The notes below the pieces were generated by a model. That model ran no database searches and was not told the origin of the DNA. It saw nothing but the letters and a program-made list of their open reading frames with translations. Positions 21,848 to 63,821 of a DNA stretch of 64,000 bases are shown here, one piece after another. Numbering within the stretch: position 1 is the first letter of the stretch; each line of letters begins with the position of its first letter. The translations under genes and the position numbers were made by a program. Source of the DNA: Chrysomallon squamiferum (lineage: Eukaryota > Animalia > Mollusca); assembly GCA_012295275.1 (NCBI GenBank), contig CM022674.1:12152001-12216000 (forward strand), written 5' to 3'.

Positions 21848-22260
21848 ATGCTGATGCAGACGTTAATTGTGTTTGTGTTAACAGGTATGTATTTAAATAA
21901 TACCTAATGGACGAGCACTTATTAATGTTTTATTTTTTCGCATATAAATGGCAGTAATATAGTCAAATAAATACTGTAATATCGTTTTCAAGGGTGGAAG
22001 GTCTTAGGACGCAGAAACCAGAGATAAAAACAAAGGCAAAGCAATAAAAAAATCATGTTCAAAACACTTTTAAAATACTTTAAAATTCTCAAATTTGATG
22101 AAATGGCCAGCTCCTCAAAAAACATAAGTTAAATAACATTAAATTATTTGAATATATATTTATATTTATTGTGGTTTTATTTCATAATATTTTTGTAGAA
22201 ACTGCTGTATGAGAAAACTATTATTATAATCTTCTTTTTTCATTATTTTCTTTCCTTTCC

Positions 22261-22291
<31 letters not shown>

Positions 22292-22353: not shown

Positions 22354-23470
22354 ATTACATACATACATACATATTACTGTAAATTTATTTAAATGTAATT
22401 TCAAATATGTTTAATTTATTTGTAAAATAAAAACATACATACATATTACTGTAAATTTATTTAAATGTAATTTCAAATATGTTTTAATTTATTTGTAAAA
22501 TAAAAACATACATACATATATACATGCAGATATACTTATATACACACATATTCGTAATATATACGCCAGGAACAGCACTTGAACGAAAATAAGTATAAAT
22601 AAAACAAGTCTCGTTTTTATTTATTTATTTGTTATATTTAATTTATTATTATTATCTTCATCATCATCTTCATCGTATGATGAGGTAAGTACGCATGCAC
22701 CAAGAGCCCATACAATTACTAATGGCGATTAAATATATCTGAGTGTACATTTACGTCATAGTTAACATTCTGATGACGTAATGTTTTGCTCTCTATAAGT
22801 TCACTTACATTTCTGTTATTATCATATTTGATCCATAAATAGTTATTTCATGATCGTGGTAACTATATACATTTGTATTTAGATTTTTTCTCTCTATATA
22901 ACGAATTTTGTTAATATTATAATTTTTTTGTTTTTGTTTTCTGATGTCGCTGTTTTATATCTATTTGAAAAGTTCGGACGTAAAACAAGGATGTCGCTGT
23001 TTTATATCTATTTGAAAAGTTCGGACGTAAAACAAGGATATAAGCTATTTCCGTATTTATTATTCTTTTTTTTTTTTTTTTTTTTTTTGTTGTTGTTGTT
23101 GTTGTTGTTTGTTTGTTTGTTTGTTTTACTCCACGTCATTATCTTATATACAGGCCAGTTAGAGCTATGAACATATATGTTGTTTTACACGGCAGACCGT
23201 ACAATTATATCAAGCTTTGCAGGAAATAAATATTTATACATTATTGTTTTTGTTTTGTTTTATTCTTCAGTTAACATTTTCATCGCTGTAGTTAAAGGTG
23301 AAGATTGTCAAAAGAAGTACACAGAGGAAGAAGAAAAATGTACTAAAGCTACTGGTCACACTGAGCAGTCCCTGCTCTATCTGACAACTGGTGGTAAAGC
23401 AGGGTCCATTCCGAAAGGAGAATCTGTTCAAAGTTTTAAAACGAAATACTGCACGTAAGACTATGTGTAT

Positions 23471-23552
<82 letters not shown>

Positions 23553-24077
23553 TTATTCCTGTGTTAGTATGCATATGTGTATCTTTGTAAATATGTTTCT
23601 GGATGTATGTCTGTGTGTGAGTATTTATGTGTGTATCTATCTTTCATTCAATCTACCTAATCTCTCTCTCCAAATATGGAGAAATAGACAGATAGAAAAA
23701 AGACAGATACATTCTTGCATACATACATACAGATAGACCGACAAAGAGACAGACATACACACATCCACGGCCAAAAGAAACCATATTTTAAATCATTCTA
23801 GTTGACAAACAACAAAAGATATGCATAAATAACCTACGCTGAAAAAATCAATACGTCAGCGTACTAAAAACACACAAAAAATGACAACATCCGACAGTAA
23901 CGTCAGCTACAAAAATCAAATGTTTTACTTCGTGGACAAAATGTTGAGTATGCGCTGAAACACTCAAGTTGAAAACCAAGTCAGACTGGTAGAGTGTGTA
24001 ACTACCCCTTAATACACGTAACAACTCTCCTTGCGTAGATGACAGTGGTTTGATTAGGTCACGTATATATATATCTA

Positions 24078-24112
<35 letters not shown>

Positions 24113-25627
24113 GTCTGTATGTATTTTGGAAGCTACGTAAATTTATGTTAAAGTATTTATGTTTTAGTTTTCTGAGCATAATAATGTTTGTGTATGAATC
24201 TATTTTTGTACTTCCGTGTAGAGCTCTTTTAATTTTAATTTTTATTTATATACAAATTTTTTACAGTTATTTACTTATCAGCAAAGCCAACTAATACTGA
24301 GATAATCTATTTTCGCCATCTTTCTTTGAACAAAAGGGTTAAATTCGTCATTATTTTGTTCACCAGCACGTCTGAAGCAGTTTTTGAATTGATCACAAAA
24401 TTGATTTTCTACAAAATTACAATACATCTAAGCACACGGAAGAACAAAATATAGATTCTTACACAAAGAAATGGTTTGTATGTTCGTCTGTACAGCTTCT
24501 GACTGTATGTATGTGTGTAAGTCTGTTCACATATACCTTCGTATTACATACTACTACATCATCCGATCTACTTCTATTAATGTATGTATCTACGAATGCA
24601 CGTACATCCTTATTAAACTATCTGTATATGTAAATATGTATGCATGTGTGTATGTATGTGTGTGTATGTGTATGTATGTATGCATGTATTTATGTATGTT
24701 GCTCTTTTGTACACATTTATGTAGGTATATGTTTCTATAAATGTGCATTTGCTATATATATGTTCTTTCTTCTTTTATTTGGAGCTGGTTTGTGCCTTAA
24801 TCTGTTGTTGTTGCTGTTGTTGTTGTTTGTTTGTTTTTGTTTTGTTTTTTACTTTTTATAGAAAAGCTATGATCAATTTATCATCAAACTGCATTAGACG
24901 TGCTGGTGAAGTTATAGAAAATGATGACGAATGTAAACGTTTTATCGGAGATAAAATCAAGAAAGATGTCGAAGACAAATTATCTGAATATAAATTGGCA
25001 TGCACTGCTGGTAAGTAAATAACTGTTACAGTTTATTATATAATTACATATTAAAATTAAATACCTTGATAATATAAAGCAAATGTTTCCCATCTATTCA
25101 TTTTTTTAATTTATACGTTCTTACAAATTTAAAATCAAGCTTCGGTTTGGACGAAAACAAAATTCTTTTAAGCACTGGATAGAACATTCTTATTGCATAA
25201 TATTGTCAGATAAATTTGATCATAAACCGTACATTTAACGCATTTCTTGTCCCTATTGCATTAAATTTGATCCATGTTTCTTTCAAATCAGTCTGGAAGC
25301 TTTAGTGGATGTATTTTCTATTAGTGATTTTGTTTTTCTTCTTTTCTTGACGTATTCTGACTTTCACCATTCGCATAGCTACTCGAACACATAACCGCCT
25401 TCACATCTTTTCTTTCTTTTTATTTTTCAAAGTTTATGGTGAATGGACTGAATGGACAGAACAACGTGGTGAGTGTAATAACACATGTGGTGTTGGTACG
25501 GCTGTTGTCTCGACAACTCGAACATGTAAGAAACTTCCACAGACGGGAATAAAACTAAAACTGTGCCTGGGAAATTCAAACGAAACAAAATATGAATCCT
25601 GTAACACAACAACACAATCTTGTAGAC
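21848..25627 (+). CDS. Gene 4 signal exon 21848-21884 and module 1: A 23271-23454, B 24862-25010, C 25433-25627
   Basis: EDCQKKYTEEEEKC...KYCT/KAMINLSSNC...KLACTA/VYGEWTEWTEQRGECNNTCGVG; intact. Confidence 0.9.
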
Positions 25628-27343
25628 GTAAGTAAAAATTAGCGAATATAGTGATACCTCGAGTTACGAGTGCCCTAACTTACGAGCAGTCGCTTGGTCG
25701 ATTTTTTGCTCTGAGTTGCGAGCAAAAATCCGAGTTACGGGCGAACTTCATCCCATATCTCACTCGTTTACTTCACGTGGTTACCTGGCCGTGGAAGCAT
25801 CTCTGTTGTGTTGTGTTCGCGTTTTTTGCAGTATTTTGCCAATTTCTTTTTTCTAACCATGGATCATAAGAAGGTGGGTGCACAGGACAGTGCTGAGAAG
25901 AAGAAGTGGATGATGTCCATTGAATTAAAAAATGAAATGATTGAAAAATATGAGTGGAGTGAGGTGTGCATGTAGTCGACTTGGGTAGGCAGCACGAGCC
26001 TAGTATCATACTGAAGCACAAGAAGTCGATTAAGACTATAAGTTCAGCTAAAGGCGTTACAATATTTTGTCTGTTCTCCAAGATAAATACACTTCACAAA
26101 AACAATTTATTTCTTTACATTCTCTTTTATTTTTTTATATAATATTTGTTATTTATAAATACATTTTTCTTATTTAAAAATATGTTGTGACGTTACAAAA
26201 AAATGGGGTGGTTTTGGAGGAGTGAGAATGTATTAATGGTATTACAGTTAATTTCAGTTAAGAAAGTTGATTTGATATACGAGCAAATTGAGTTACGAGC
26301 TTGGTCACGGAACTAATTAACCTCGTAAGTCAAGGTACCACTGTATTAGTTTGTCACAAATCATAGAATGTACAATAAAGCAGAGCAAATATACCTTCGT
26401 GATATGAGAACAAACGTAGAAAATGTTCGTTTTTGCCAAAAACAGTTAAAATACGATTTCACACATGCTGAACATGTAGAAAGCAATACTACCTATTCAT
26501 GTCGCTTTGTTACATAGACAGGAATATGGCAGAGTAAACGTATTATATAAAAAGTATAACATGCAGTGATTATTTGAAAGTTTATTGCACAGATTAAAGT
26601 ATCGTAATTATTTCAATAGGAATAATGGAATGCAAACGTAGTATACTTATACCAACATAAATAAGGCACTATAAACCTACCATAACAACTAACATTATAT
26701 TTCAGTCAAAAGTGAATGGTGCAATGCAATTTACACTTCGAAGTTAGACAAATGTATTAAAAGCACTGGCCACACAAAAGAATCAATGGACTTTATGCTC
26801 TCTCGAGGACAAACAGGGTCTATTCCGAAAGAAGAATCAGTTTTAACTTTCAGACAAACATTCTGCACGTAAATATATTTTTGGGTACTTAATACGTTTG
26901 TATGTCTGGATCTATCAGTATATGTAGGCATGCCTGCTTCTGCCTATGCAGTACGTATGTCTCTCTGTATGTGTGTGTGAATGTTTATGTATATACACAC
27001 GTACGTCTTTACCAACCTGTCAAGGTATGCTTGTATGTATATATGTTTTCTTGTAAGTATGTATATATGTTTTATTTATTAGTACTAATTGCTAAGTGCA
27101 TATAATTTCAGGTTGTCTATTATATTGCATAGAGAAGAGATATGTCAACGACAAATATATTAAATAAATTTGTGTTAATAATTATGAATCTGTCTTTATT
27201 ACTATTATTATTATTATTAGTTGTAGTAGTAGTAGTAGTGGTATTTATTTATTATTGATTTATTTATTTATATATGTATTTGTTTGTTTATTTCATTATT
27301 ATTTTTTTATTATATGTTATTTCTTCAGACCCGACGCTTCCTT

Positions 27344-27432
<89 letters not shown>

Positions 27433-30400
27433 TATCATATTCCCGTGGACTTCAAAGAAAACAGCGGAATCTGTGAGTCTGACATATTTTGGCCGCTTGA
27501 TGTAAAATTATCTTAAGCAAATATGCCGTTAATGACATAGATTCCACAACATAACAGTTGAGAAAAGTATCTTTACAAATGCAGCTGCCAAACTCATTAT
27601 AGCATGGTCAAAGTTTCAAGGTCCTCATTCGTGACCTTCGCTCGTTTGTTTTTCTTCAGACCCCACGTTTCTTATTTTTTGTCTGTATATACCAAATTCA
27701 CGCGGACGTGAAAGAAAATTGCGCAAGTTTAAAAACTGTCTTTAGATTATATTCATATGAAAATTATTACTTTAATAAGATTATCAGTAATTAGTATAAA
27801 TAAATGTTTCATATACATCCCAACTTCCTAAATTATCTAACAAAACCTTTGTTGTCATGTTTGTAGTCAAGCTAAGATCAGTTTATCATCAAAGTGTTTT
27901 CGGTATGCTGCTGATGCTATAGAAGCTAATAACAAATGTAATAATTTCATCGGAGATAAAATCAAGAAGGATGTCGAAAATAAATTATCTGAATATAAAC
28001 TGGCATGCTTTGCTGGTAAGTAAAATAAGTGTAAAACTTCCTAATGTAAATAAATATTAAAACTAAAATGTTTCTTTGAGAAGAAAATATACGATCAGAA
28101 ATGTTTCTTATGTATTGATTTGTATTGACGAGCAGCCGTTAAATATTAGATAATAAAATAGTAATGGAAAAAAAAGTTGAATCGAACTGTCTTAGAACCA
28201 TATATTTCACAGTATCGAAACAAACGAAATGAATACGAAATATAACTGTTTCCAAATTCGTTTTGAAGTTAAAATGTATTTGTTAGATGTTTCGAGTTCT
28301 CCTGTGATGTCTGATAGCATAATTACTTTTCCCAGGAGATAGCAAATGTTTCTCATTAGCGTCTGCCCCTCAGTGATTAGTACTAGTCAGCGTGTCACTG
28401 TGGGGAAACAAACAAATATGGTAACTCTGTTTACATTTGTGTCCGACCATGTGTTTCCTTCTTCGCACCATTTAAAGTTTCATTCTTTTTTTTTTCTGAC
28501 AGTTTATGGTGAATGGACTGAATGGACAGAACAACGTGGTGAATGTAATAACACATGTGGTTTTGGTACAGCTGTTGTCTCGACAACTCGAACATGCAAG
28601 AAACTTCCACAGACGCGAAGAATACTAAAACTATGCGTGGGAAATTCAAACAAAACAAAATATGAATCTTGTAACACAGAAACAGAATCTTGTAAACGTA
28701 AGTAATAATCAGCGAAGATTATTTAGCCACAAACCATAGAAACTAGAAGTAAAACTACCTACATCCTATAAAAAGGAATAACATGTAGAAAAAAGTGTTG
28801 TTTTTGTGTTGGAAACGTATATGTACTAATGCACATTCACATACCTATATTAAATAGAAATAAGGCAAAATAATTGATTAAATAAAGAGGTGTAAAACAT
28901 AAAAAACAATCCATCATTATTTCCACAGATTAAACTAGTGTAATTATGTTAACAGAAATAACGGAATCCAAAGGAAGCATTCATATAAAATAGCAATAAC
29001 AAACAATAAACCTAACCTAACTGTGTAAACAGCAACCAAATGTAATCGTACCTTTATTATGTTTCAGTTAAAATTGTGTCGTGTAATTCAATGTACGCTT
29101 CGAAATTAGACAAATGTATTAATAATATTGGCCATACAAAAGAATCAATTGCGTTTATTCTATCACGTGGAGAAAAAGGATCTATTCCAAAAGAAGAATC
29201 TGTTCTAAGTTTCAGACAGAAGTACTGCACGTAAGTTTATATCCGAGTACTTCAACTACATCCGTAGTTATGTATTTATTTGTGTTCTTATATGTTTATC
29301 TATCCTTGTATTTGTGCATGTTTGTTTTTATTTATGCAACCTTATGCAACCTTATAGTTATATCAGGTATTGAGTTAATTTATTTATATTGGTTTCTGTT
29401 TTCTTTTTCTGATTTTCTTTTAATTATTTTATTCTTTTTTTTTTTTTTTTTGGTGGGGGATTTCTTTGTTGTTGTTCGTTTTTTTTTTTTTTTTTTTTTT
29501 CTTTTTCTTTTTTTTTTCTTTTTCTTTTGTTTGTTTCTTTTTCTTTCTTTTCTTCTGAGTATAAGCTGTGTAGGAACGATTGTTTTTCTTACTTCTTTAA
29601 ACCTGTGTAATAAATTTTATAGAAAAGCTAAGATCAATTCATCATCAAACTGTTTTCGGTCGGCTGGTAATGATATAGAAAGTAATGACGAATGTAAACG
29701 TTTCATCGGAGATAAAATCAAGAAAGATGTTGAAAATAAATTATCTGAATATAAATTGGCATGCTTAGCTGGTAAGTAAATAAGTGTAAAACTTTCTGAT
29801 GTAAATAAATATTAGAATTAAAAGTCTCATTGAGATGAAAATATACGATCAAAAACGTTTCTTATCTATTGATTTTGTACCTAATTGACAATGCCATTCA
29901 AATGAACAGCCGATAAATATTTGATAATCACATAGTAATGGAAGAACAGACGATTAGAACAAAGTTGAATGGAACTGTCTTAGAACCATATTTTTCACAA
30001 TATCGAAAGATACGAAACGAATACGAAAGATAACTGTTTACAAGTCGTTTGGAAGTTAAAATGTACGTGTTAGACGTTTCGATTTTTTCTATGATGTCTG
30101 CTAGTGTAATTACGTTTCCCAGGATACACCAAACCGTTTCTCATTAGCATCTGCCCCTCAGTGATAAGTACTAGCAGGCGTGGGGAAACACACATGGTAA
30201 CTCTGTTTACATTTGTGTCCGATCATTTTCCTTCTTCGCTCCATTTAATGTTTCATTCCAGTGACGCAATGCGTTTTGCATAGTGTAGGATTTAGACTTG
30301 AACTTATAATAACTAAATATGTACGACGGATCCTTCTCAATAACAATGAACTGATTTTCATGCATGATAATTTCCACTACTAAAGGTAACTGAAACTAAA

Positions 30401-33284
30401 TGACATATTTTTCATCAAACATATATTTTTTATGCATTGTAAATGACTAGTTCATTAGATTCGATCTACTTTCCTTTTGATGTCTGTCCAGTCGCTTTTT
30501 CGTATGGGTTTTTGTGTATTAAGAAACAAACAAAAACAAAAACAACATCAACCTTCATGACAAAAACAAAAGAGTATTTTCGCAGTATCCTTTGCCATAT
30601 GTTCTAAGTTCATTTGGATTCCCGTTTCTACAATCATCACTTTTACAAACAATCAGTTTTGTTTTCTTCTGCCTTGACTTCGTTAGTAACGAATTTAGCT
30701 TTCATACAATATTTGATTTTCTCTTTTTTTTCTCTGAAAGTTTACGGTGAATGGACTGAATGGACAGAACACCACGGTAAGTGTAATAATACATGTGGAG
30801 CTGGTATCGCTGTTGTATCGACAAGTCGAACATGTAACAAACTTCCACAGACTGGAAGAAAATTAAAACTATGTGTGGGAAATTCAAACGAAACAAAATA
30901 TGAATCCTGTAACACAGAAACGGAATCTTGTAAATGTAAGTAATAATTAGCGAAGATTATTTAGCCACAAACCATAGAAACTAGAGCAAAACTACCTACA
31001 TCCTATAAAAAGGAATAACATGTAGAAAAAAGTGTTGTTATTGTGTTGGAAACGTATATGTACTAATGCACATTCACATACCTATATTAAATAGAAATAA
31101 GGCAAAATAACTGATTAAATAAAGAGGTGTAAAACATAGTAAACATTCCATCGTTATTTCCAGAGATTAAACTAGTGCAATTATGTTAACAGAAATAACG
31201 GAATCCAAAGGTAGCATTCATATAAAATAGCAATAACAAACAATAAACCTAACCTAACTGTGTAAACAGCAACCAAATGTAATCGTACCTTTATTATGTT
31301 TCAGTTAAAATTGTGTCGTGTAATGCAATGTACGCTACGAAATTAGACAAATGTATTAATAATACTGGCCATACAAAAGAATCAATTGCGTTTATTCTAT
31401 CACGTGGACAAAAAGGATCTATTCCAACAGAAGAATCTGTTTTAAGTTTCAGACAGAAGTACTGCACGTAAGTTTATATCCAAGTACTTCAACTACGTCC
31501 ATAGTAATGTATTCATTTTGTGTTCGTATATGTTTATATGTCCGTCTATTTATGTATGTTTATAAGTGTGCAAATATGTATATATTCATATATTTTGTAT
31601 CTTGGTATCTACGAAACTATATACGTCGTTATATGAGGTAGTGAGTGAGTTTATTTATATTGGTTTGTTTTCATCTTTTTTATTTTCCTTCTGTGTATAA
31701 GTCATGTATGAACCCTTTTTATTCTATGTTGTGAAAACCTGTATTATAATTTTTTTAGTAAAGATAAAATCAGTTTATCATCAAATTGTTTTCGGTCTGC
31801 TGCTGACGTTATAGAAGGTAATGACGAATGTAAACGTTTAATCGGAGATAAAATCAAGAAGGATGTCGGAAAAAATGTATCTGAATATAAACTTGCATGC
31901 TTTACAGGTAAGTAAATAAGTGTAACAATTTATTATGTAAATTAATATTTCAATTAAAACAGTTCGTTGAGAGGAAGTTAAACGATCACAAATGTTCTTT
32001 ACTGATTGATTGTGTACTTAGTTGATAAGACCGGGCAAACAACCGGTAAATATAATCATTTAAGAAAAAAATACTGCAACAGAGTAGAATCCAGCTGTAT
32101 TAGAATATTCGACAACAAACCGAATTCCAAAGAAAACTGTTTTCGGATTCCTTTCTAAGACAAAATGTACACAATGTAAAGAACAGTCACCAGCTTTGCT
32201 TTCTTACCAGATGTGATGGAACCAAATCTTCCTTGTTATATCACCACTTCGTGGGGATTTTGCAGTGTGGTCCATCTGTGTTATAGAAAAACGTTCTTGT
32301 CCATGACAGTAGTAAGACTGTCGCAGAATTGGTTAGTGACAGGTCAGTTTAAAGTGAAAGCTCACGCAAAAGATGTTTCTAGAGTTTTCGAGTGACCAGG
32401 TGAAGACTCGATATAAACACAGACACTACAAGATTTTCCATTCCTCACCCAGTGTCCTGGTATTTCAAGCTTATATCCTGATGTTAATGCAACAGTTCGC
32501 TTTTTGCTTCCTCGTCCTACCTCTACAGAGTACACTTTAACACATCCTCGGGGGTTCTTTCTGTGGTAGTCTTGCGTTTGTAGTGCCGCATTTTGACATA
32601 AAGGTATGAATGAATTTATTATATTAGAGTCATATAACCAATAAAACTCAACTTACGTTTTTTTGGAGTACCTTACCTTTTTCCAAAGTATACAGTGATA
32701 ACACATTAGTATAGGGTATAAACACTGATGCATTGGGGTCCAGTTTAATAAGCAATTATTTTAGCTTTTCCAGTAGGATTCACTCTACTTAAAAAAAATA
32801 TATAAAAAAAAAAATTACTTTTCTTCTCAGCAATTTCTATCTGTATAAAAATGATACATAACAAAAAAAAATAATAATATAATAAAATAAAATAAAGTTT
32901 ACCCCACTCTCCCCCAAAGTGAGCTTTTCAATGAGACGATTCATATTTTCCATTCAGCAAACAAAATGTATTCTTATAGGCACAGGATTAAATATCCTTA
33001 CTAAAACTATTGCTGTTCTACTGCACCAAACGTTTGTCGTTAAGCATATATTTTAAACATCTCATTAGAATTGATCTATGTTCCATCGAAGCCAGTATTT
33101 TCGCTTTTTATATGTAATTGCTATTAATAAATATGCTTCGATGTCTTCTTCATATTTTCTCAATGAGTCCTATCTTTAACCATTCGCTTAGCTACCTCGA
33201 AGTGTATTTTTAAATTTATTTTAGTTTTTTTATTATTTCTTTCTTTGATTTATGATTATTATTGTTGTTGCTATTGTTGTTGTT

Positions 33285-33359
<75 letters not shown>

Positions 33360-34769: not shown

Positions 34770-34804
<35 letters not shown>

Positions 34805-35699: not shown

Positions 35700-35740
<41 letters not shown>

Positions 35741-45639: not shown

Positions 45640-45674
<35 letters not shown>

Positions 45675-51600: not shown

Positions 51601-54600
51601 CTCATTCAGGATCCGGATTCTGCACTCATGACATTTTGCACTTTTTCTTTCTTTGTTGTTGTTTTTTACCTTCGTTAGTTTCGGATAAAAAAAAAAAGTG
51701 TTTTCAATTCTCTATATTATTTTTTATTTAAAGGCTACGGTGAATGGACTGAATGGACAGAACAACGTGGTGAGTGTAATAACACATGTGGTGTTGGTAC
51801 TGCTGTTGTATCGACAACTCGAACATGTAACAAACTTCCACAGACTGGAAGACAACTAAAACTATGTGTGGGAAATTCCAACGAAACAAAATATGAATCC
51901 TGTAACACAGAAACGGAATCTTGTAAATGTAAGTAATAATTAGCGAAGATTATTTAGCCACACATCAGAGAATGGGAGAATAAAGCAGAATAAATGTACC
52001 CATATCACATAAAGAGGAGTAACATCTACAAAACTATTTTCATTACTGAAAGCAACAGCATTATTATAAAGTGGAATAAAAACCAGCAAATATTCGTCGT
52101 TAGCTGAAAGTTAATTTCACAGATTAAAGTATCATAATTATTACAACAGGAATAAAGGAATGCAAACGTAGCATTATTTTACAAATAACAATATCGCACA
52201 ATAAACGTACCATAACAACCAATTGTAATCGTACCACTATTACTTTTCAGTTAAAACTGAGTTGTGCAGTGCAGTGTATGCTTCGAAGTTAGACAAATGT
52301 ATTAATAGTACTGGCCACACCAAAGAATCAATTGAGTTTCTTGTATCTAGCGGCCTGGCAGGGTCTATTCCTAAAGAAGAATCTGTTCTAACATTCAAAG
52401 AAAAGTACTGCACGTTAGTATAATTCCGAGTATTTCAACCTAAGTCTGTGTTTTTTATGTGCATAGTTACGTATTTATTTGTGTGCATTTGTATGTATTC
52501 CTCTGGTTATGTATATATGTTTGTATTTCTGTATATATACTGGTATTTACATAAAACTGCACATACTTGTGCATGTCGTTTTCATATTTTCTTTTTTGTT
52601 TTTTTTCTTCGTTTGCTTTTTGTTTGTATTTTTGTTTTTCTTTTTTTCTTTCCATTTTGTTGTTATTTGTTCTGTTTGCTTTTCTTTTTGTGGGGTTTGT
52701 TGTTTGTAGTTTGTTTTGTTTTTGTTGTTTTTTGTATGAACGTGCATGTGTTATATGCTTCGTATTTTAATTTCTTTAGGGAAGCTAAGATCAATTCATC
52801 ATCAAACTGTTTTCGACTTGCTGTTGAAGCTATAGAAAATAATGAGGAATGTAAACGTTTCATCGGAGATAAAATCAAGAAAGGACGTCGAAAATAAAAT
52901 ATCTGAGTATAAATTGGCATGCACTGCTGGTAAGTAAATAACTGTTAAATTTTATTACACGAATGAAACTGACACGTCTTGCTCAGCTTTCTGACCCGAT
53001 GTTTTCAAATCAAGAAAAAACGAAATTTATTTTGTTTTGTTGTTGTTATTCCTGTTTTCTTATTTTTTTTCGTGCAGCGGATTAAACTAGAGCATAACAA
53101 TGGTATGTTGTGGCATTGTATTAGAACTTTGTCACTCAAGTTCATGTCTTATTCATTTTCTATTGTTTTATTTATACTGAGTGTCTTCGACTATTTCTCC
53201 AGAATGGTACTATCATTTCAGAAACAAGACAGATAACTCAGTGTATTATAACACAATAATTGCTCGTCTCGATTCAGTTTGATCATATATCGCTCTTCAT
53301 TTTGTTTTTGTCCTTGACTTTGTTATGGCCTGTTATTGAATGCAAGTTGTACTGAATATTTAATTTTTTAATATTAATTTTTTTTTTTTTTTTTTTCCAA
53401 GTTCATCTCGAGTGGACTGAATGGACAAAACAACGCGGTAATTGTAATAGCACGTGTGGAGCTGGTGTCATTGCTGTGTCCAAAACCAGAACGTGCGAAA
53501 TATTTCTGCAGACGGGAAAGAGAGAAAAGCTGTGCGTGGGAAAGTCAAACGAAACAGAATATGAATACTGTTACACATCAACAGAATACTGCAAATGTAA
53601 GTAATAATTAGAAAAAATTAATAGTCGCATTCAAGTAGTACAAATATTCATACATCACATAAACAGACATAACACATTGAAACTATTAGTTATTAAAGGG
53701 AAGAAGAATAACTCCATGCACAAACATACTGCTTTAGCACTGATTCATGCAGCTACTTAATTTAAACAGCCACTAGACAGATTAAATGAATTATAACGAT
53801 ATCAACAGGAATAAAAGATTATATGAATTATAATTATTTAAACTAACAACAGGCCTTCCATTATTTATTTTCATTATGTTAATAAGCCTGATTGGTGCGG
53901 TGAAATAAAATAAATAGTAGCCCTTCCATTACCTTTCAGCTAAGCCTGATTGGTGCGGTGAAATATACGCTTCGAACTTAGCCAACTGTATTAATGGCAT
54001 AGGCCATTCCACAGAATCAATGGCCTTCATATTATCTCGTGGCCAAAATGGATCTATTCCAGAAGGAGAATCTATTCTAACGTTCAGACAAAAGTATTGC
54101 ACGTAAGTACATTTCCAGATACTTCCACCTAGGTGTTTCTTGACATGTATGTCTATATCCCTCTGTATGCATGTATCTGCATAAATACAAACGTCATATA
54201 TATATATATAACCTATAATTTACTAAAGCATTAAACTTTAATATACATAATAGCTATATACTAAATGATATAATAATGTATGAACCCTATACTGACATAA
54301 AAACCATGTAAACAAATGTAAACACTATATGCAAAGAAAAATGTACAGTAGGAAAATTTAGGCTAGGTTGGTTAATTTAGGATGGTTATGAGTACAAATG
54401 GAAACTTACTCTTGCCTTGATAGAAAGTAGGTTGAGAAAGGGTTTTAAACTGGGGACTCAGAATTACTTAAAAGGTAAGGTTTCAAGTGGGAAATGGAGA
54501 TAAGTTCAAATGTAGTGATCTGGAAAACTGATGTCAGTGAAATTGATGGTCAGCAATATTATATCAAAAGTCTAATTTTTGTAGGGAAGCTAAGATCAAT

Positions 54601-54971
54601 TTAGCATCAAACTGTTTCCAAACAGCTGGGGAGGATAAAAAAAAGGATGTGTGTAAACGTTTTACAGCCGAAAAAATCAGGAAAGATGTCGAAAAGAAAT
54701 TATCGGAATACAGATTGGCATGTTTAGCTGGTAAGTAATATCTGTTACAGTTTACTGTATAAATCACGTATTGATTTTGTTCATAGCTGAAGACACCAAA
54801 GAAACGTAATCAACAGCTAAATATAAGATAATTACCTTGTAAGAAAAGGAATGCCGTTTAAAACGGAATAGATTCGAAGAAACGCTAAGTTCACAGCATC
54901 AGGGTGATGATGAACATGAATAACTTTCTTTATCTACATAAAATTATACAGCTTTTGTATGTCGTTAAAAA

Positions 54972-55004
<33 letters not shown>

Positions 55005-56353
55005 TAAATTCAACTTGGGACATTTTTTATTAGCTTTTCAATAAATAAAACTGATCTAATTAAAAATATTAAATTCTTTAGGCACTGGATCGAACACTAC
55101 ATGCAACAAAATATTGTTATTCAACCCCCGTAATCTTTATATCATCAGCCTTATATTTGATACATTTCTAGTAATTCGTTCATCAGATATCATTTATTTT
55201 CCTTCGACATTGTAACCTAGTTGCTTTTTACATTAAATGAATTTGTTTCCGTTTCCCGTGACCTTGTGTTGAAGCATTCACTTAGCTATTCCAACACCTT
55301 AATTAACAGCAGTTGCCAAAATAAAGATAACCGCTACCTTCTTTTCGACTTGCACTCATTTATACTAATTCTATCCGTAATCAACTTTTTTAAGCGAAAT
55401 TTCTAAATGCATTTGCAAAAAAATAGATTTTTTTCTTCAAAGTTTATGGTGAATGGACTGAATGGACAGAACGTCGTGGTGAGTGTAATGACACATGTGG
55501 TCTTGGGACCTGTCTTGTATCGAAAACTCGGACGTGTAAGAAACTTCCACAGACTGGAAGACAACTAAAACTATGTGTTGGAAATTCAAACGAATCAAAA
55601 TATGACACCTGTAAGACAGAAACAGAATCTTGTAAACGTAAGTAATAATGAGCCAAAAAAAGCCATTGAAATTAGAATAAAGCGAAGATTAGTCAGTCAC
55701 ACACCATAACAAGTAGAATAAAGCAGAGTAAATGTTCCGGTATCATATAAAGAGGAATAAAATGTAGAAATGCTTTTGTTATTAAAGGAAAAAGGATAAT
55801 AAATCCCAAACACAATCGTTGAATGTGCAGGGAGCAATAACTATTGATGTAGTTACGTTATACACATAGAAAGAGAAGGAAGACGAAATGCAGTAAATGT
55901 TAACAGGAGTAAAGGAATGCAAACGTAACATTTTTATGTAAACCGCAATAACATACAATAAACCTACCGTAGCAGCCGATAGTAAACCACCATTATTATG
56001 TTTCAGTCAAAATTGAGACGTGCAATGCAATGTACGCTTCGCACTTAGCCAAATGTATTACTAGTACTGGCCATACCAAAGAATCGATGGACTTTATGCT
56101 ATCTCGTGGACAGGCAGGGTCTATTCCTAAAGACGAATCTGTTCTAACATTCAGAACAAAGTACTGCACGTAAGTATATTTCCAGCTTCTTCTTACTGCT
56201 GCTTATTGCTTGTGGTGTATGTAGGTATCAGTGGCTGTCAGTTTATACGTCCGTCTCTGATTTCATTTGGGATATCTGTGTGAACGTACCTGCTTATTCG
56301 CAAACATGTACGTGGACCTATATATATTTTGTATCTAATTATTCAAATACGTC

Positions 56354-56431
<78 letters not shown>

Positions 56432-59400
56432 CAGTTTGTGTGTATATGCATAGTTTCTCAAGTTTATATCGGTTTATAGGAGTGCATGTGCTTTAAAATC
56501 TGTGTCTGTATTGTTTTTCTGAACATACCTCTATGAGTCAATCTATTTTATTTTAATTTTGTAGAAATTCTAAGATTAGTCTAATAACAGCGTGTTTCCG
56601 GGATGCTGGCGATGCTATGGAAAAAACTGATGTATGTAAACGTCTTGTTGGAGATAAAAGCAAGAAAGATGTTGAAAATAAATTATCGGAATATAAATTG
56701 GCATGTTTTGCTGGTAAGCAAATAACTGTAACAATTTTATTACATCAGTACATTTTGAAACTAAAATACCGGATAGTTTCACAAGATAGGGGTCATGAGG
56801 AACATGCAATAGCTCTCTTCTTGTGTGTGTATGTTTTGTGTGTGTGTTTGGATGGGTATGGGTGTGAGTGTGTGTGTCTGTGAATCCAGTCATTCGCGTA
56901 ATGTTTAAATAAATCAGCCATTTCGCGAACTTCCTGAGACTACCAGGACTACGAAATGACTGAACATCATGGCCAGCCATTATCCAAAATGACTAAAGTG
57001 ATTCAAGTTTTATTGTTGACACTTGCTTACAGGTTCTTGGTCTTAAATACTGATAAACACACCGTATCCAAACTGATTACGACAGGATTACTTTTAGTAC
57101 TCTTAGTACAAACCTGTGATTGCAGCATCCTGTAACTTTCATCTCTGTAAAACTTAACGTTTCTGGGGTTTACTCACAAAATTCTTCTTTCTTTCTTTTT
57201 CTTTTTCCTTTTTTTTTTTTTTTTTTTCTTATTCTTCTTTGGTCTTTGTACTTAGTGCATCATGTCAGAGTTCTTTTAAGAGTAAATTCAAGATGTGGGT
57301 TGGATAATTAATATTTGCTTTTGGTCCCTTAAAAAATTTGTTCATTTTACACATTAATTGAACGTCCTCTCTTCAAAATATTCCTGTTTTATAGTCATCA
57401 TGCACATTTCAAGTAGCTCGTTCATTACATTTTATCTGTTCCTTTAACATATCATAGGTTTTTCATATTTATTTTCTACGTAATGAGTTAATTTCCGTGA
57501 TTTTTTTTTTTTTTTTGATTTTTTTGATTTTTTAATCACCATTCCCAAATCTCCTTTAACACCATTATTATAACTGCCATTATCAAAATTTTCTTCATAA
57601 CTAAATATTAACATAAAGACATTTCCAACTTTCTCTCCGGCAGCCTCTTAGCTCATTCTGATACCGCTTTCTGTACTTATCTCTTGTATGGTATATCGGG
57701 TTTCCTTGACTTCATCAGTAATGAATGCATATTGTATTCAATGTTTCCAAAAAAAATTGCTTTAAAGTCTTCCTTTTTTTTTTAATTTTTTTTTTTTTCT
57801 TTAAAGAATATGGTGAATGGACTGAATGGACAAAACAACGTGGTAAGTGTAATAATACATGTGGCGTTGGCACCGCTGTTATATCGACAACTCGAACATG
57901 CAACAAACTTCCACAGACAGGAAGGAAATTAAAACTCTGCCTGGGAGAATCAAACGAAACAAAATATGAATCCTGTAACACTGAAACAGAATCTTGTAAA
58001 CGTAAGTAACAATTAACTAACACAAACTAATTAAATCACAAACCGTAGAAATTAGAGTAAAGAAGTACACGCAGCTGTATCACATAACGAGGAATAACAG
58101 GTAAAAACAAAACTGTGTTAATTAGAGGAAACAAGAATAATACCACTGACACAGATGCTGATTATGCAGGGAGCGATAATACCTATTCTAAAAAAGCAAC
58201 ATTATACAGACAGGAAAAATACGCTGTAATAATACCGTCGTTGTTTAGAAATTAATTTCACAGAATAAAGTACTACTGTTATGTTAATGTGAGTAAAAGA
58301 ATGCAAATGTAGCATTATTACGTAAACTGCAGTAATACTGAATTAACATACGACAACTGTGTAAACAACAACCAATAGTAACCGTACAGTTATTGTGTTT
58401 CAGTTGAAATCAATGTGTGCAAAGCAGCATACACCAATAACTTTGCCAAATGTATTCCTAGTACTGGCCACACCAAAGAATCGATGGCCTTTGTGCTATC
58501 TAGTGGTCAAGCAGGTTCCATTCCGAAAGGAGAATCTGTTCTATCTTTCAGAAAAAAGTACTGCACGTAAGTTTATTGCCGGTTCCTTTCACCTACGTAT
58601 GTACATGTACACCTCTACATGCCTCTCCATATACGCATTTGTGCATGTTTGTGTGCGTATCTACGTTTTCACAAATGTATCTACATGTCACATTATTCAA
58701 CGTGTATGTGCATATATCAGAGTGTTTACATCTGTATTTGTTTACATCTGTATTTGTTGTATGAATCTGTTTTATGTTTCTTGTTCCCTCGGCAAACTGT
58801 ATTCTAATTTTTGTAGAAAAACTAAGATCAATTTAACATCAAACTGCTTCCGACGAGCTACTGATGCTATAGACAGAACCGATGTATGCAAAAGTCTTAT
58901 CGGAGATACAATCAAGAAAGATGTGAACAACAAATTATTTGAATATGAACTGAAATGTTTTGCTGGTAAGTTAATAACTGTAACAATACTGAAATTAAAA
59001 TAACTAATTGAGATGAAGCTATTTTATAAGAAATGTTTCATAGAACCGTACAAACGTACAACAGCCGGTGAATATGAGATATTCTCATTCTAAGTAAAGA
59101 ATAGACGGTTATAACAGAGTAGAACTGAAACGTTATACAACTCACTTTGTTTCACAGGTGCGGCATGTCGAGGAACGTGATAAAAGTATATCTACTGTGT
59201 TATGTGTCGTTAAAACTGTAAATTCAACATATAGGCGGGACGATTCGTTTTTTCTTCTTAACAAATGAAATTCATCTGCTTACACAAATTAGTGCTTTTA
59301 GCACCAGAATCGAAGATTCATTATTACTGCAAAATAATTCTGTTCTACTGCACCAGAAATATTCTTATATTTTATGCATTTCGAGTATCTCTTTCAGTAG

Positions 59401-62400
59401 GTTTGATTTATGTTGTTTTGACATCTGATAGCTTTCTCATAAATAGTTAGTATTTAATGACTTTGTTTTTGTGTTTTCGTGAACGTTTTCGACCCTGCCT
59501 TTTTCCATTCATTTAGCTACTAAACACCAAACTGCCATTACCTAAAACGTCATCATTACGAAATCCAAAATAAAGACCTTCGCAACTTCCTGTCCGGATA
59601 GATAACATTTTTCCCAGTATCCTCTGCGGCTGGCTCCTAGTTCATTCTAATTCCGGTTTCTCATCTTTACGACTGATTGAGTTTCCTTGACTTCGTTACT
59701 AATGAATGCGTTTTGTATTCAATTCTTACAAAAGAAATTGTTTTCAATTTTCTGTAATATTTGTTCTTAAAAGTATACGGTGAATGGACTGAATGGACAG
59801 AAGAACGTGGTGAATGTAATAATCACATGTGGCGTTGGTATCGCTATTATATCGACAACTCGAACATGTAAGATACTTCCACAAACTGGAACAACACTAA
59901 AACTCTGCCTGGGAAAATCAAGCGAAACAGAATATGAACATTGTGACTCAACAACAGAATCTTGTAAACGTAAGTAATAATTAGCGAAGATTAGTTAGAT
60001 ACAAACTACATAAAGTAGAATAAAGGAAGGTAAATGGACCTTCATCATATAAAAATGTGTGTTAATAAAGGAAACAGTAATAACACCAGGGACACAAACG
60101 TTGACTGTGCAGGGAACAGAAATACTTATTCACTAACAGAGCAAGGAAAGCTGGGTAAACGTATTATTGTTCTAATATTAGTACACACTAAACATACATA
60201 CGTTATTTTGAGTAAACGTATTATTGTTCTATTATTAGTACACACTAAACATACATACGTTATTTTGAGTAAACGTATTATTGTTCTATTATTAGTACAC
60301 ACTAAACATACATACGTTATTTTGAGTAAACGTATTATTGTTCTATTATTAGTACACACTAAACATACATACGTTATTTTGAGTAAACGTATTATTGTTC
60401 TATTATTAGTACACACTAAACATACATACGTTATTTTGAGTAAACGTATTATTGTTCTATTATTAGTACACACTAAACATACATACGTTATTTTGAGTAA
60501 ACGTATTATTGTTCTATTATTAGTACACACTAAACATACATACGTTATTTTGAGTAAACGTATTATTGTTCTATTATTAGTACACACTAAACATACATAC
60601 GTTATTTTGAGTAAACGTATTATTGTTCTATTATTAGTACACACTAAACATACATACGTTATTTTGAGTAAACGTATTATTGTTCTATTATTAGTACACA
60701 CTAAACATACATACGTTATTTTGAGTAAACGTATTATTGTTCTATTATTAGTACACACTAAACATACATACGTTATTTTGAGTAAACGTATTATTGTTCT
60801 ATTATTAGTACACACTAAACATACATACGTTATTTTGAGTAAACGTATTATTGTTCTATTATTAGTACACACTAAACATACATACGATATTTTAAAAAGT
60901 AATTAATTACAATATGCTATTAGGAACAAAGGAATGCAAACGTTACATTATCGTATTAACAGTATTACCACAATATAACATACACAATTGTTTAAACAAA
61001 AACCAGTCATAACCGAACAGTTATCGTGTTTCAGTTGGAATTGAATCCTGCAATGCACAGTACGCTTCGAGCTTAGCCGCATGTATTGACAGTACTGGTC
61101 ACACCAAGGAATCGATGGACTTTATGCTTTCTCGTGGAGAAACGGGATCTATTCCAAAAAACGAATCTGTTCTAACTTTCAGAGAAAAGTACTGCACGTA
61201 AGTGTATTTCCAAGTACTTCACACATCAGTGTGTGAATACATATATCTGTATTAATAACTATGCATCTAAGTATGTAGATGTGAATGCCTATATGTATGT
61301 ATCTCTGTTTGTATTTGCGCATGTCTATATATTTATATATTTGCGTATTCGCAAACGTATACATAGAACCGTATACGTTTTTATGAATATATCTACATAT
61401 CGTATCGGCGTGCGTTTTTATCAGCCTATGTACGTATATAAATATGAGTGTGCATATGTATGCCTGCAGGTATGCATGTATGTATGTGTATGCGCATGTG
61501 TTTATTCTAATATCTATATTCACATTTTTGCGTAACTCTGCGTCCATCATTGTATTTACGTGTGTTTGAGTTGTTTTTCTGAAAATGTATATTGTTTTTG
61601 TTTGTTTTCTTCTTCCGTGTGCTAAACTGACTTCTGACGTTTATAGAAAAGCTAAGATCACATTAACATCAAACTGTTTCCGAGGTAGTGGAGATGCTAT
61701 AGAAGAAAACGATGAATGCAAACTCCTTATCGGAGACAAAATCAAGAAAGACGTCGAAAATAAATTATCTGAATATAAACTGGCATGTTCTGCTGGTAAG
61801 TAAATGCCTTAACAATTTGTTATATCAATAACTTTTAAAGTTAAATATCTCGTTGAGATAAAGTTATATAAATGTTCTTTACCCACTGATTTTATACTAA
61901 GTGTGTAACACCGAGCAAACTTAACAAACAACATTTAAACATGTGCTAATCACTTAGTATCAAATTAGTATCCAACTGTCTTACAACATGGATAGCATCA
62001 GAACATCAGGGTGGTGAGGAACAGGCAATTACTTTCTTTATGTATATGTTCGGTTGTTATATATTATCAAAAATGAACGATCAAAATTTGAGTGGGACAA
62101 ATAATGTTTCCTTTTAAAAAAAAAAAAAAATTAAAAATTAAATTAATCTTTAGCAGCTAGATTTAACATCTACTCATACTACAAAATATCATTGTTATAT
62201 AGCACCAAAATGTATCATCAACCTTATATTACATGCATTTCGAGTTATTCGTTCGTTTGATTTCATTTATGTTTCTCTGACATCGCACAGCTTTCTCGCA
62301 GCCATTTTCTATATAATGTGTTTGTTTCCGTCTTCTCTTCATGTTTTTATCTAACACCATTCGTTTAGCAGCTACAACGCTAAATCTGCCATCGACAAAA

Positions 62401-63821
62401 ACATCTTCATAAGGAAATCTAATATATTATCTTCTTTTTTCAAAGTTTATGGTGAATGGACTACATGGACAGAACAACGTGGTGAGTGTAATAACACGTG
62501 TGGTGTTGGTACCGCTGTTGTATCGACAACTCGAACATGTAAGAAACCTAAACAGACAGGAAAGAAATTAAAACTGTGCGTGGGAAGTTCAATGGAAACA
62601 AAATATGAATCGTGTAACACAGAAACAGAATCTTGTAAATGTAAGTAATAATTAGTGATGATTAGTTCTTCACAAACCGTGGAAATTACACGAGTAAATT
62701 AACCTTCATCATAAAAGATGAATAATACGTAGAAAAAGTTGTGTTAATAAAGGAAACAAGAATACTAATACAGACACAAATGCTGACTGTGCAGTAACAT
62801 AGCTACATTCCAAAGGCAGAGTACACGTATTATTATTATATAAACAGAACAATGCGCTCTAAACATATTTAAAAAGGAATTACATAGATTAATTACCATC
62901 ATTGTCTTAACAGGAATAATATGCATGTACTGCATTATTATATAAACTTCAATAACACAGAATAAACATATCATGACTGTGTAAAAAAACAACTAACAGT
63001 AGCCAAACAAATATTGTCTTTTAGTTAAAATTCAGTCGTGCACTTCAATCTACGAATCGAACTTAGCCAAATGTATTAATAGCACTGGCCAGTCCAAAGA
63101 ATCACTGGACTTTATGATATCTCGTGGCCAAGCAGGGTCTATACCAGAAGGAGAAACTATTCAAACTTTCAGACAAAAATCCTGCACGTAAGTATATTTT
63201 CGGTTGTTCCTAAGCATGTATCTCACTATGTATCCGTTTGTATGTATGTATTCATTTACATAACTCTCTGTGTATACCTACCTCTTTATACGTATATGTA
63301 TATATATCTATACTTATTTGTATGTTTATGTACATATTTCTGTTTGTATTTGCACACATTTGTATATACGTATCTGCGTGTTAATGAACGTCCGTACGGA
63401 TGTTCATATATTTGTATCTCCGTGTCTTTAATCAGCCTGTTTACGTATGCATGAATTTATGTGTGAATTTTATATATGTGCATTTATATGTGTATCCGCT
63501 TGCACGTAGGTATGTATACATGTATATATGTTTGTATGAATATATGTTTGTGTATTTGTTTTTCAGTAATGTTCATGTTTATATGTTGGTATATACATTA
63601 ATGTATTTATGTGTACCATGTTGTCTATCAGAATATTTGTACGTCTGCAAACTTGTATCCTTATGTCTGTAGATTGACTAAAACCAGTTTATCGTCAAAC
63701 TGTTTCCGACGTGTTGGTGATGCTATAGATAAAAATGATATATGTAAGCGTCTTATCGGAGATAAAATCAAGAAAGATGTCAAAAACAAATTATCGGAAT
63801 ATAAATTGGCATGCACTGCTG
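21848..63821 (+). CDS. Gene 4: giant secreted or membrane protein with at least 17 tandem [6-Cys domain + TSR] modules; continues beyond the window
   Basis: Signal exon 21848-21884 (MLMQTLIVFVLT) joins A1 to give MLMQTLIVFVLTVNIFIAVVKG/EDCQ. It is followed by strictly ordered A(163 nt)-B(149 nt)-C(195 nt) exons with canonical GT-AG sites and compatible phases. Only A1 carries a signal-peptide half. Confidence 0.9.
22943..23036. repeat. Direct tandem duplication of about 47 bp; a separate ~73-bp duplication lies at 22361-22510
   Basis: gatgtcgctgttttatatctatttgaaaagttcggacgtaaaacaag present twice. Confidence 0.85.
25649..26343 (+). mobile_element. Tigger/pogo-like (Tc1-mariner) non-autonomous DNA transposon
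   Basis: TIRs tagtgatacctcgagttacgag and rc cagtggtaccttgacttacgag, with TA on both sides. Internal relic MDHKKVGAQDSAEKKKWMMSIELKNEMIEKYE resembles the Tigger/TIGD1 N-terminal HTH. It interrupts the attagcgaa..ttagtt intron motif that is intact in other modules. Confidence 0.85.
26706..28697 (+). CDS. Gene 4 module 2: A 26706-26868, B 27867-28015, C 28503-28697
   Basis: Exon lengths 163/149/195, canonical splice sites, open frame. Confidence 0.9.
29068..30935 (+). CDS. Gene 4 module 3: A 29068-29230, B 29623-29771, C 30741-30935
   Basis: 163/149/195, canonical splice sites, open frame. Confidence 0.9.
31305..33664 (+). CDS. Gene 4 module 4: A 31305-31467, B 31759-31907, C 33470-33664
   Basis: 163/149/195, canonical splice sites. 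Confidence 0.9.
34051..37080 (+). CDS. Gene 4 module 5: A 34051-34213, B 36226-36374, C 36884-37080 (C has +2 frameshift)
   Basis: C is 197 nt; extra AA in the A-run at 37038-37041. Confidence 0.8.
34440..35646 (+). mobile_element. Decayed DNA transposon with DDE transposase relic, probably Sola2-like
   Basis: Frameshifted fragments DFTEN..FQDKI*RFH*DNKQATFLPLYI (about 34858-34950) and HNEKDLGLTAKWNFFATS (about 35037-35091) match motifs recalled from Sola2-type transposases (DFxENY..QDEIQSFHW..QATLHP; WHFFATSHGK). The right end rc begins GGGTCA and loosely matches ..gtcaaatcacc near 34450. Confidence 0.55.
35852..35895 (+). pseudogene. Orphan fragment of a B exon in the A5-B5 intron
   Basis: Reads FQRAADAKENNDE*, compared with FRRAADVIENNEEC in intact B exons; the 5' part of the exon is missing. 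Confidence 0.6.
37473..39203 (+). CDS. Gene 4 module 6: A 37473-37635, B 38030-38178, C 39009-39203
   Basis: 163/149/195, canonical splice sites. Confidence 0.9.
39606..43683 (+). CDS. Gene 4 module 7: A 39606-39768, B 42221-42368 (-1 frameshift), C 43489-43683
   Basis: B is 148 nt, one base missing at about 42330-42333; C carries an extra Cys (GLGTCLV). Confidence 0.8.
39989..40974. repeat. Long inverted repeat 1: arms about 39989-40401 and 40654-40974
   Basis: For example gagctaattctggggaatgtaacta against tagttacattccccagaattagctc, and ttatctagaataacagtagca against tgctactgttattctagataa. Confidence 0.85.
40972..41976. mobile_element. Foldback/MITE-like element with ~250-bp inverted arms (about 40972-41230 and 41712-41976)
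   Basis: aaacaatttacaatccgatctatcgaaaa...catgccagaagcttcataaactatttcgcagcaaaggaa is mirrored by its reverse complement at about 41855-41955; no clear TSD. Confidence 0.7.
44154..46106 (+). CDS. Gene 4 module 8: A 44154-44316, B 45113-45261, C 45913-46106 (-1 frameshift)
   Basis: C is 194 nt; one base missing at the A-run 46008-46012. Confidence 0.8.
44464..44716. repeat. (TATG)n/(TG)n compound microsatellite
   Basis: Seen directly; source of the MYVC/HTYI pseudo-ORFs. Confidence 0.95.
46477..47956 (+). CDS. Gene 4 module 9: A 46477-46639, B 47016-47164, C 47762-47956
   Basis: 163/149/195, canonical splice sites. Confidence 0.9.
48321..49830 (+). CDS. Gene 4 module 10: A 48321-48483, B 48994-49142, C 49636-49830
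   Basis: 163/149/195, canonical splice sites. Confidence 0.9.
50482..51928 (+). CDS. Gene 4 module 11: A 50482-50644, B 50997-51145, C 51734-51928
   Basis: 163/149/195, canonical splice sites. Confidence 0.9.
52251..53596 (+). CDS. Gene 4 module 12: A 52251-52413, B 52780-52929 (+1 frameshift), C 53402-53596
   Basis: B is 150 nt (aagaaaggacgtc at about 52877-52889); C is divergent (VHLEWTEWTKQRGNCNSTCGAG). Confidence 0.8.
53940..55637 (+). CDS. Gene 4 module 13: A 53940-54102, B 54585-54730 (in-frame 1-codon deletion), C 55443-55637
   Basis: 163/146/195, open frame; C carries an extra Cys (GLGTCLV). Confidence 0.88.
56007..58001 (+). CDS. Gene 4 module 14: A 56007-56169, B 56565-56713, C 57807-58001
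   Basis: 163/149/195, canonical splice sites. Confidence 0.9.
58404..59969 (+). CDS. Gene 4 module 15: A 58404-58566, B 58817-58965, C 59774-59969 (+1 frameshift)
   Basis: C is 196 nt; aataatcacatgt at about 59818-59830 against aataacacatgt or aataatacatgt in other modules. Confidence 0.8.
60155..60893. repeat. 57-bp minisatellite, 13 near-identical copies, in the C15-A16 intron
   Basis: Unit gtaaacgtattattgttctattattagtacacactaaacatacatacgttattttga starts at 60155, 60212 ... 60839. Confidence 0.95.
61035..62640 (+). CDS. Gene 4 module 16: A 61035-61197, B 61647-61795, C 62446-62640
   Basis: 163/149/195, canonical splice sites. Confidence 0.9.
63025..63821 (+). CDS. Gene 4 module 17 (partial): A 63025-63187, B 63673-63821; C expected beyond the window
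   Basis: 163/149, canonical splice sites. Confidence 0.9.

Follow-up and report, generated by a model that had tools for sequence, protein, structure and literature searches.

The locus described here raises two questions: whether a long array of repeated exons forms one giant gene, and whether such a gene is intact. The array lies on the plus strand at 21848-63821 of a 64,000-nucleotide stretch from the mollusc Chrysomallon squamiferum (NCBI GenBank assembly GCA_012295275.1, contig CM022674.1, positions 12,152,001 to 12,216,000 of the forward strand), which is the whole DNA analysed and is called the window. It is a real, selected and lineage-specific exon array. The reading proposed for it, held tentatively and at somewhat less than an even chance, is a single intact gene for a heavily glycosylated protein, longer than 2,800 residues and probably membrane-anchored, that would act as a long multivalent rod in adhesion or recognition.

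The exons were mapped by tblastn with one exon per type, and the boundaries were then set by hand. The array contains 51 exons with a summed length of 8,481 nt: a signal exon (S) and, behind it, 17 A, 17 B and 16 C exons that keep strictly to the order A-B-C. The splice sites are canonical throughout (AG acceptors in 50/50, GT donors in 51/51). The standard exon lengths are 163 nt for A, 149 nt for B and 195 nt for C, with phases 1-2, 2-1 and 1-1, respectively. Together they form a module unit of 507 nt, or 169 residues, with phase 1-1 and a mean spacing of 2.4 kb. An earlier note, made from the letters alone, had proposed the single signal exon, the 50 exons in A-B-C order and the 507-nt module, and the map with its canonical splice sites bears this out. 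The at least 17 modules that it counted hold for the A and B exons, whereas the complete modules are 16, followed by the pair A17-B17 at the window edge. The cysteine positions it described as fixed are indeed kept in 16/16 internal A, 14/14 standard-length B and 13/13 standard-length C exons, and these 43 standard-length internal exons show no stop and no cysteine loss. On the other hand, its frame of about 2,800 residues, still open at the edge, did not stand as proposed: five of the 50 exons (C5, B7, C8, B12 and C15) are frameshifted, and the straight-spliced frame stops at residue 879.

A search of the array for a second signal exon, for the exon D that encodes a short thrombospondin type-1 repeat (TSR) in neighbouring genes, and for a transmembrane (TM) exon returned none of them, and a second copy of S is absent from the window. 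The array is therefore read as one gene with an amplified ectodomain unit. The mean nucleotide identity among copies is 76% for A, 79% for B and 85% for C, and the highest value for a pair is 96%. Duplication by the assembler was considered as the source of the array and ruled out, since the copies are too diverged. Nucleotide profiles detect no further intact exon within the array, just two decayed B pieces. The C-to-A introns are mutually homologous and mostly 320-470 nt long, and reading through the donor meets an in-frame stop after most exons. The region has approximately 31% G+C and its spliceosomal introns are rich in microsatellites. Intron C1-A2 holds an element of about 700 nt (25650-26345) with inverted ends and short lysine-rich coding pieces, which presumably resemble the DNA-binding region of pogo/Tigger transposases; Pfam was blank for two fragments. 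Intron C15-A16 holds a 57-nt minisatellite with 13 copies, 99% identical (60155-60893).

The sequence motifs mark exon C as a divergent TSR of the group-1 type. Its six cysteines are present in the 13 standard-length copies, and the three frameshifted ones also keep six when read across frames. The usual TSR carries R-x-R before the third cysteine; this motif occurs in 0/16 C exons, which have a single arginine with T, S or K at the first position. Pfam TSP_1 matches 11 of 13 C exons weakly (best E 0.023), and exon C stays below the PF00090 gathering score of 21.6 bits, the first of these C exons scoring 11.6 bits. The W-x-x-W motif is found in 16/16 copies and C-x-x-S/T-C in 15/16; in C15 the inserted base falls within the latter. 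According to the available text of PMC9198472, a TSR has six conserved cysteines in a motif of 50-60 residues, and these two motifs, the second lying between the first two cysteines in group 1, are the C-mannose and O-fucose motifs, respectively. C7 and C13, which are 94% identical, both have a seventh cysteine. Exons A and B together present the cysteine spacing C-x10-C-x36-C-x10-C-x13-C-x22-C. Single-exon AlphaFold2 models give three helices for A (predicted local distance difference test, pLDDT, 88.5), two helices for B (pLDDT 82.9) and no strands, and A+B is thus predicted to be an all-helical six-cysteine domain. Since each exon contributes three cysteines, at least one disulfide would have to join A to B. 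In the nine modules scored there are 2-4 N-glycosylation sequons per module, and the net charge is always basic (+1 to +8). This basic character suggests that the ligand may be an anionic glycan or an acidic protein partner.

The early stop is caused by the five frameshifts, of 1-2 nt each, located near 37041, 42330, 46010, 52883 and 59823; without them the frame would reach about 2,826 residues. A sixth exon, B13, has lost 3 nt in frame. The five shifted exons and B13 keep their cysteines when read across frames. Moreover, the whole array shows no nonsense codon, splice-site loss or cysteine loss, not even in the 12 modules that follow the first frameshift. The aligned C-to-A introns contain 691 substitutions and 87 frame-changing indels (about 8 per indel), and neutral decay with five frameshifts is expected to bring 2.5-5.5 stops, splice-site losses or cysteine losses; the probability of finding none is 0.004-0.085. 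The four 1-nt indels fall on columns that vary among the copies. The insertions in B12 and C15 write both alleles of such a column (A in 11 and G in 3; C in 10 and T in 3), and the deletions in B7 and C8 remove one (G 12, A 2; G 9, C 3, A 1). The joint chance of this placement is 0.008 in a simulation with the same placement rule. The dead B copy, with many indels and stops, looks quite unlike the frameshifted exons. According to the available text of PMC7466960 and PMC5632298, indel errors commonly produce frameshifts in long-read assemblies that are unpolished or unphased. Consensus error is favoured because stop, splice-site and cysteine losses are absent, the indels sit on copy-variable columns and the dead B copy is different. 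Most of the five frameshifts are thus probably artefacts of the assembly consensus.

Besides the stop at residue 879, several points weigh against this interpretation and against a large intact receptor. The value of 0.008 omits the 2-nt event of C5, although this event also sits among variable columns. The pattern had been seen before the test was devised, and mutable columns or gene-conversion slips could yield the same signal. The chance that five of five first hits per module are frameshifts is 0.024-0.135, which is indecisive. The minisatellite within the array shows no indel in its 12 full copies, and two neighbouring paralogues, g2 and g3, contain no frameshift in 1,947 coding nt, where about 1.1 would be expected at the rate of the array; the assembly is therefore not obviously error-rich. 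The two decayed B pieces indicate that copies do die at this locus. The 3' end of the giant gene lies beyond the window, and the membrane anchor is predicted by paralogy only. Finally, a word-based search with the alignments of exons A, B and C, which is weak evidence, found no homologue among the proteins of 96-2000 aa in a set of 5.8 billion.

The ratio of nonsynonymous to synonymous substitution rates (dN/dS) among the copies is 0.51 for A, 0.46 for B and 0.32 for C, in keeping with purifying selection. Surface residues may vary between modules, with about 40% of codons fitting a near-neutral class and about 55-60% constrained. Six selection tests were run, and gene conversion tends to inflate such tests. 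For exon A, the M8a-M8 comparison gives P 0.01 (positions 3-4, just after the TSR). The M1a-M2a comparison reaches significance for none of the exons (P 0.07 for A, 0.35 and 1 for the others), and no positive selection is detected for B or C. Strong diversifying selection was considered and is unsupported, with one of the six tests significant.

The origin of the repeat unit may be read from its first copy. The exon A of g1, g2 and g3, like A1, opens with the second half of a signal peptide. Within these codons A1 contains an AG placed exactly 163 nt before the donor. This inner position is the acceptor in all 16 internal A exons, and 0/16 have an AG at the position of the upstream acceptor of A1. 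Use of the inner acceptor drops the hydrophobic stretch and keeps phase 1, and the recruitment of this AG may be what made the unit repeatable. A1 stands on a long branch and the internal A copies form a shallow star, while B1 and C1 group among the internal copies; the exon trees are poorly resolved (0 starred branches). The amplified unit is therefore best read as B-C-short A. The closest pairs vary from exon to exon (B1-B9 96%, A3-A4 96%, C7-C13 94%), and the A, B and C identity matrices are uncorrelated over nine modules (Mantel rho 0.07, -0.33 and -0.17). Copy relationships that differ in this way indicate conversion at the scale of single exons. An origin of A and B by internal duplication was also considered and rejected (probability 0.2%).

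Table 1. Exon modules of the array, decayed copies and neighbouring paralogues, in window positions.
Feature	Position	Strand	Details
Exon S, first half of predicted signal peptide	21848-21884	+	37 nt, phase-1 donor; 19-residue hydropathy 2.46 across S+A1
Module 1	23271-25627	+	A1 23271-23454 (184 nt, rest of signal peptide, most divergent A), B 24862-25010, C 25433-25627
Module 2	26706-28697	+	A 26706-26868, B 27867-28015, C 28503-28697
Module 3	29068-30935	+	A 29068-29230, B 29623-29771, C 30741-30935
Module 4	31305-33664	+	A 31305-31467, B 31759-31907, C 33470-33664
Module 5	34051-37080	+	A 34051-34213, B 36226-36374, C 36884-37080 (197 nt, +2 frameshift)
Module 6	37473-39203	+	A 37473-37635, B 38030-38178, C 39009-39203
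Module 7	39606-43683	+	A 39606-39768, B 42221-42368 (148 nt, -1 frameshift), C 43489-43683
Module 8	44154-46106	+	A 44154-44316, B 45113-45261, C 45913-46106 (194 nt, -1 frameshift)
Module 9	46477-47956	+	A 46477-46639, B 47016-47164, C 47762-47956
Module 10	48321-49830	+	A 48321-48483, B 48994-49142, C 49636-49830
Module 11	50482-51928	+	A 50482-50644, B 50997-51145, C 51734-51928
Module 12	52251-53596	+	A 52251-52413, B 52780-52929 (150 nt, +1 frameshift), C 53402-53596
Module 13	53940-55637	+	A 53940-54102, B 54585-54730 (146 nt, one codon lost in frame), C 55443-55637
Module 14	56007-58001	+	A 56007-56169, B 56565-56713, C 57807-58001
Module 15	58404-59969	+	A 58404-58566, B 58817-58965, C 59774-59969 (196 nt, +1 frameshift)
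Module 16	61035-62640	+	A 61035-61197, B 61647-61795, C 62446-62640
Module 17, incomplete at window edge	63025-63821	+	A 63025-63187, B 63673-63821
Decayed inverted exon B copy, first A-B intron	24280-24394	-	about 70% identical, indels and stops
Decayed exon B fragment, intron A5-B5	35852-35902	+	detected with nucleotide profiles
Paralogue g3	15543-20130	+	8 predicted exons, 334 aa: signal, A, B, C (TSR), D (short TSR), TM helix, charged tail
Paralogue g2	14642-7690	-	11 predicted exons, 313 aa: signal, A, B, shortened C, D, TM helix, tail
Paralogue g1, partial	1-1431	-	A 1431-1233, B-like about 490-350, C cut by window start

The same exon types are found upstream of the array in three single-module genes, g1, g2 and g3. 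The g2 and g3 genes have open frames, canonical splice sites and no frameshift, and are predicted to encode type I membrane proteins; their models, including the choice of the signal and tail exons of g3, are a reading of splice signals. The 19-residue hydropathy of the TM helix is 2.47 in g2 and 3.45 in g3. The tail of g2 is made of phase-2 micro-exons and terminates in a polybasic run. These neighbours suggest that the gene family of the array is membrane-anchored. As g2 and g3 end in D, TM and tail exons, the same end is predicted for the giant gene, to the right of the window.

Other features are observed around the paralogues. The predicted tail of g3 (19974-20130) contains one S-x-Y-x-x-V motif, similar to an immunoreceptor tyrosine-based inhibitory motif, for which the estimated chance in such a tail is about 10%. 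A diverged copy of the g3 terminal exon follows the original at 20469-20620. Exon C of g2 (12309-12452, minus strand) lacks the first two and the last cysteines of the TSR, and its exon D has CSVTCG; the two exons may together form one rearranged TSR. Downstream of the g2 tail, at 3500-5147 on the minus strand, a second run of pieces resembling micro-exons (39, 39, 56, 33 and 15 nt), together with another region that looks like a terminal exon, suggests an alternative cytoplasmic tail or a remnant gene. Within the g2 intron C-D, a degenerate tandem repeat whose period is about 40 nt occupies 11070-11880.

The evidence also has to be weighed against other accounts of the array. If the TM end has been lost, an intact protein would be secreted, as a disulfide-rich structural protein or as mucus or egg-coat matrix. 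The C-terminus beyond the window and the many N-glycosylation sequons are compatible with secretion, and the extra cysteine of C7 and C13 could cross-link chains; on the other hand, two of two complete paralogues carry a TM helix and a tail, and a spare cysteine is lacking in 14 of the 16 C exons; a matrix protein is considered unlikely. The frameshifts may instead be real, and the locus a young pseudogene or a gene that yields just a secreted chain of 878 residues, about five modules long. The proportion of shifted exons, the early stop, the decayed B copies and the transposon-like insertion within the introns all agree with decay. The expected nonsense, cysteine or splice-site losses are nevertheless missing and the indels lie on copy-variable columns, and this account appears equally improbable.

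The broken modules could also be bypassed. In-frame skipping of exon triplets, together with exon-level conversion, would give many isoforms that differ in length and sequence, and the phase 1-1, 507-nt unit allows it: once the five broken modules are omitted, the frame stays open for 1,981 aa with no stops. The mosaic relationships among exons and the weak positive selection on two N-terminal positions of exon A point the same way, and the repeat number of oyster bindin is described as varying by splicing in the available text of PMC5712786. However, phase symmetry, which any internal repeat needs, does not count as evidence of regulated skipping. The A, B and C exons are interleaved, not grouped as mutually exclusive sets, and the selection signal comes from the inflated tests described above, with M1a-M2a not significant. 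Module skipping is accordingly held to be as doubtful as the two preceding accounts. Far less credible is a separate small gene for each module. Short products are conceivable from the stops met on donor read-through, but the array has no copy of the signal exon and no D or TM exon, A2-A17 have no signal extension, and the short C-to-A introns are homologous. One intact and probably anchored gene remains the reading adopted here.

Searches for relatives returned little. The ESM Atlas gave nothing usable for exons A1 and B3, and Pfam gave single-member, unrelated matches only for exons A and B. By sequence, the PDB gave nothing below E 0.2, the best match of the C profile being a BAI1 fragment (7r84_A, E 0.22). 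In the fold search, the model of exon A alone reached a best Z of 3.4, with no Foldseek match at E <= 0.001 and nothing that stood out from the background. Odorant-binding protein, saposin, DUF19 and the Izumo bundle, which are helical cysteine-rich domains of extracellular proteins, are not among the single-exon profile matches, and half-domains of 49-53 aa lose sensitivity. Since every query was a half-domain some 50 residues long, the A+B domain is called unrecognised, and not a new fold. Two matches to viral, bacterial and metagenome contigs were rejected as short chance matches in GC-rich sequence, of 7-8 bits. Searches of open-access literature text turned up no account of the architecture, and supplements may list such genes unnamed. 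The motifs, the helical models and these null searches support what the earlier note had put forward, an extracellular repeat protein that is lineage-specific and combines an unrecognised six-cysteine domain with a TSR; the note's comparison with egg receptors stands as an analogy, and does not extend to the domains (no CUB or ZP-N), the charge (basic modules), the copies (less homogenised) or the selection (weakly positive).

Among known systems, tandem-TSR membrane proteins include THSD7A/B, the adhesion GPCR BAI and the apicomplexan TRAP/CTRP. The array resembles them in its six-cysteine group-1-type TSR with fucosylation and mannosylation motifs and, in the paralogues, in a TM helix and charged tail. 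It differs in the unrecognised helical domain between the TSRs, in the one arginine at R-x-R and in scores below the Pfam cut-off. EBR1, the sea urchin egg bindin receptor, is described in the available text of PMC13672419 as ADAMTS-like with tandem CUB-TSP1 repeats. Both systems have a signal peptide, a very large multi-exon gene, a TSR alternating with a second domain and repeats that are hard to assemble (PMC13672419). However, the partner domain is here predicted to be all-helical, with no CUB match in Pfam for 19 A or 16 B exons; the window has no ADAMTS-like part and the signal peptide leads straight into module 1. The species-specific repeats of EBR1 are 97-100% identical (PMC13672419), against 76-85% here, and the paralogues of the array are predicted to be membrane-anchored. 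Abalone VERL shares a unit of ~150-170 aa repeated about 20 times, a divergent first unit and a one-unit paralogue, VEZP14, in the same genome (PMC3567151). Its repeats are described as negatively charged ZP-N beta-sandwiches (PMC3567151), whereas those of the array are helical plus TSR and net basic, with no ZP match in Pfam and no strand in the A and B models; the C-terminal ZP module is absent from two of two complete paralogues. Since the defining domains are not found, the giant gene is not a member of the VERL or EBR1 families. Pacific oyster bindin has tandem domains with an internal intron that are shuffled by recombination and whose number splicing could vary, although with an F-type lectin fold, 1-5 repeats and strong positive selection (PMC5712786), none of which is shown here. 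The domain set differs in the cephalopod venom proteins that carry TSP-1 domains, as far as described in bioRxiv 10.64898/2026.04.09.716377.

A receptor for gamete recognition on the model of VERL or EBR1, in which each repeat binds a ligand of the other gamete, would be a special case of the proposed gene. The analogy draws on a unit and array size near those given for VERL in PMC3567151 (about 22 repeats of about 150 aa, the first repeats distinct), on the long branch of A1 beside the shallow star of internal copies, and on the alternation of TSRs and another domain, which EBR1 also shows (PMC13672419). Against it, ZP-N and CUB domains are missing, the modules are net basic, and B1 and C1 are not distinct from the internal copies. 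Nothing points specifically to gametes, and this role is rather unlikely.

In the favoured mechanism, the ancestor would have been a small receptor with signal, A-B, TSR, short TSR, TM and tail. An AG within the signal-peptide codons of exon A would then have become a new acceptor and yielded a 163-nt A, free of the hydrophobic stretch, and a phase 1-1 unit of 507 nt. Unequal crossing-over would amplify this unit, and exon-scale conversion shuffle it, until at least 16 whole units and two-thirds of a further one followed the one predicted signal peptide. Each A+B pair may form one disulfide-bonded, five-helix domain with a variable binding surface, and each TSR a stiff, glycosylated and conserved spacer that holds the helical domains apart. 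The repetition would provide reach and avidity toward a repeated, probably anionic, ligand. The five frameshifts would be mostly consensus errors of the assembly, and the D, TM and tail exons would lie to the right of the window. A bolder and rather improbable proposal is a new family of single-pass recognition receptors with a new helical domain stabilised by disulfides, in which one member amplified its ectodomain at least 17-fold through the signal-derived acceptor and is now diversified by module skipping and exon conversion, as an independent generator, similar to Dscam or bindin, for the recognition of self, gametes or symbionts.

The architecture class is familiar, that of a tandem-TSR surface protein; the distinct part is the unrecognised helical domain and an origin that can be read from the neighbouring small receptors. 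These 64 kb present small receptors of the ancestral type beside their giant derivative, together with a candidate splice-site change that would have enabled the internal repetition, and A+B may be an extracellular fold that is still unannotated. Annotation typically misses or breaks genes of this kind, and the five probable consensus errors would lead to a pseudogene call or a split model. If expressed on gametes, skin or symbiotic organs, the giant gene would be a candidate for species-specific recognition in this lineage.

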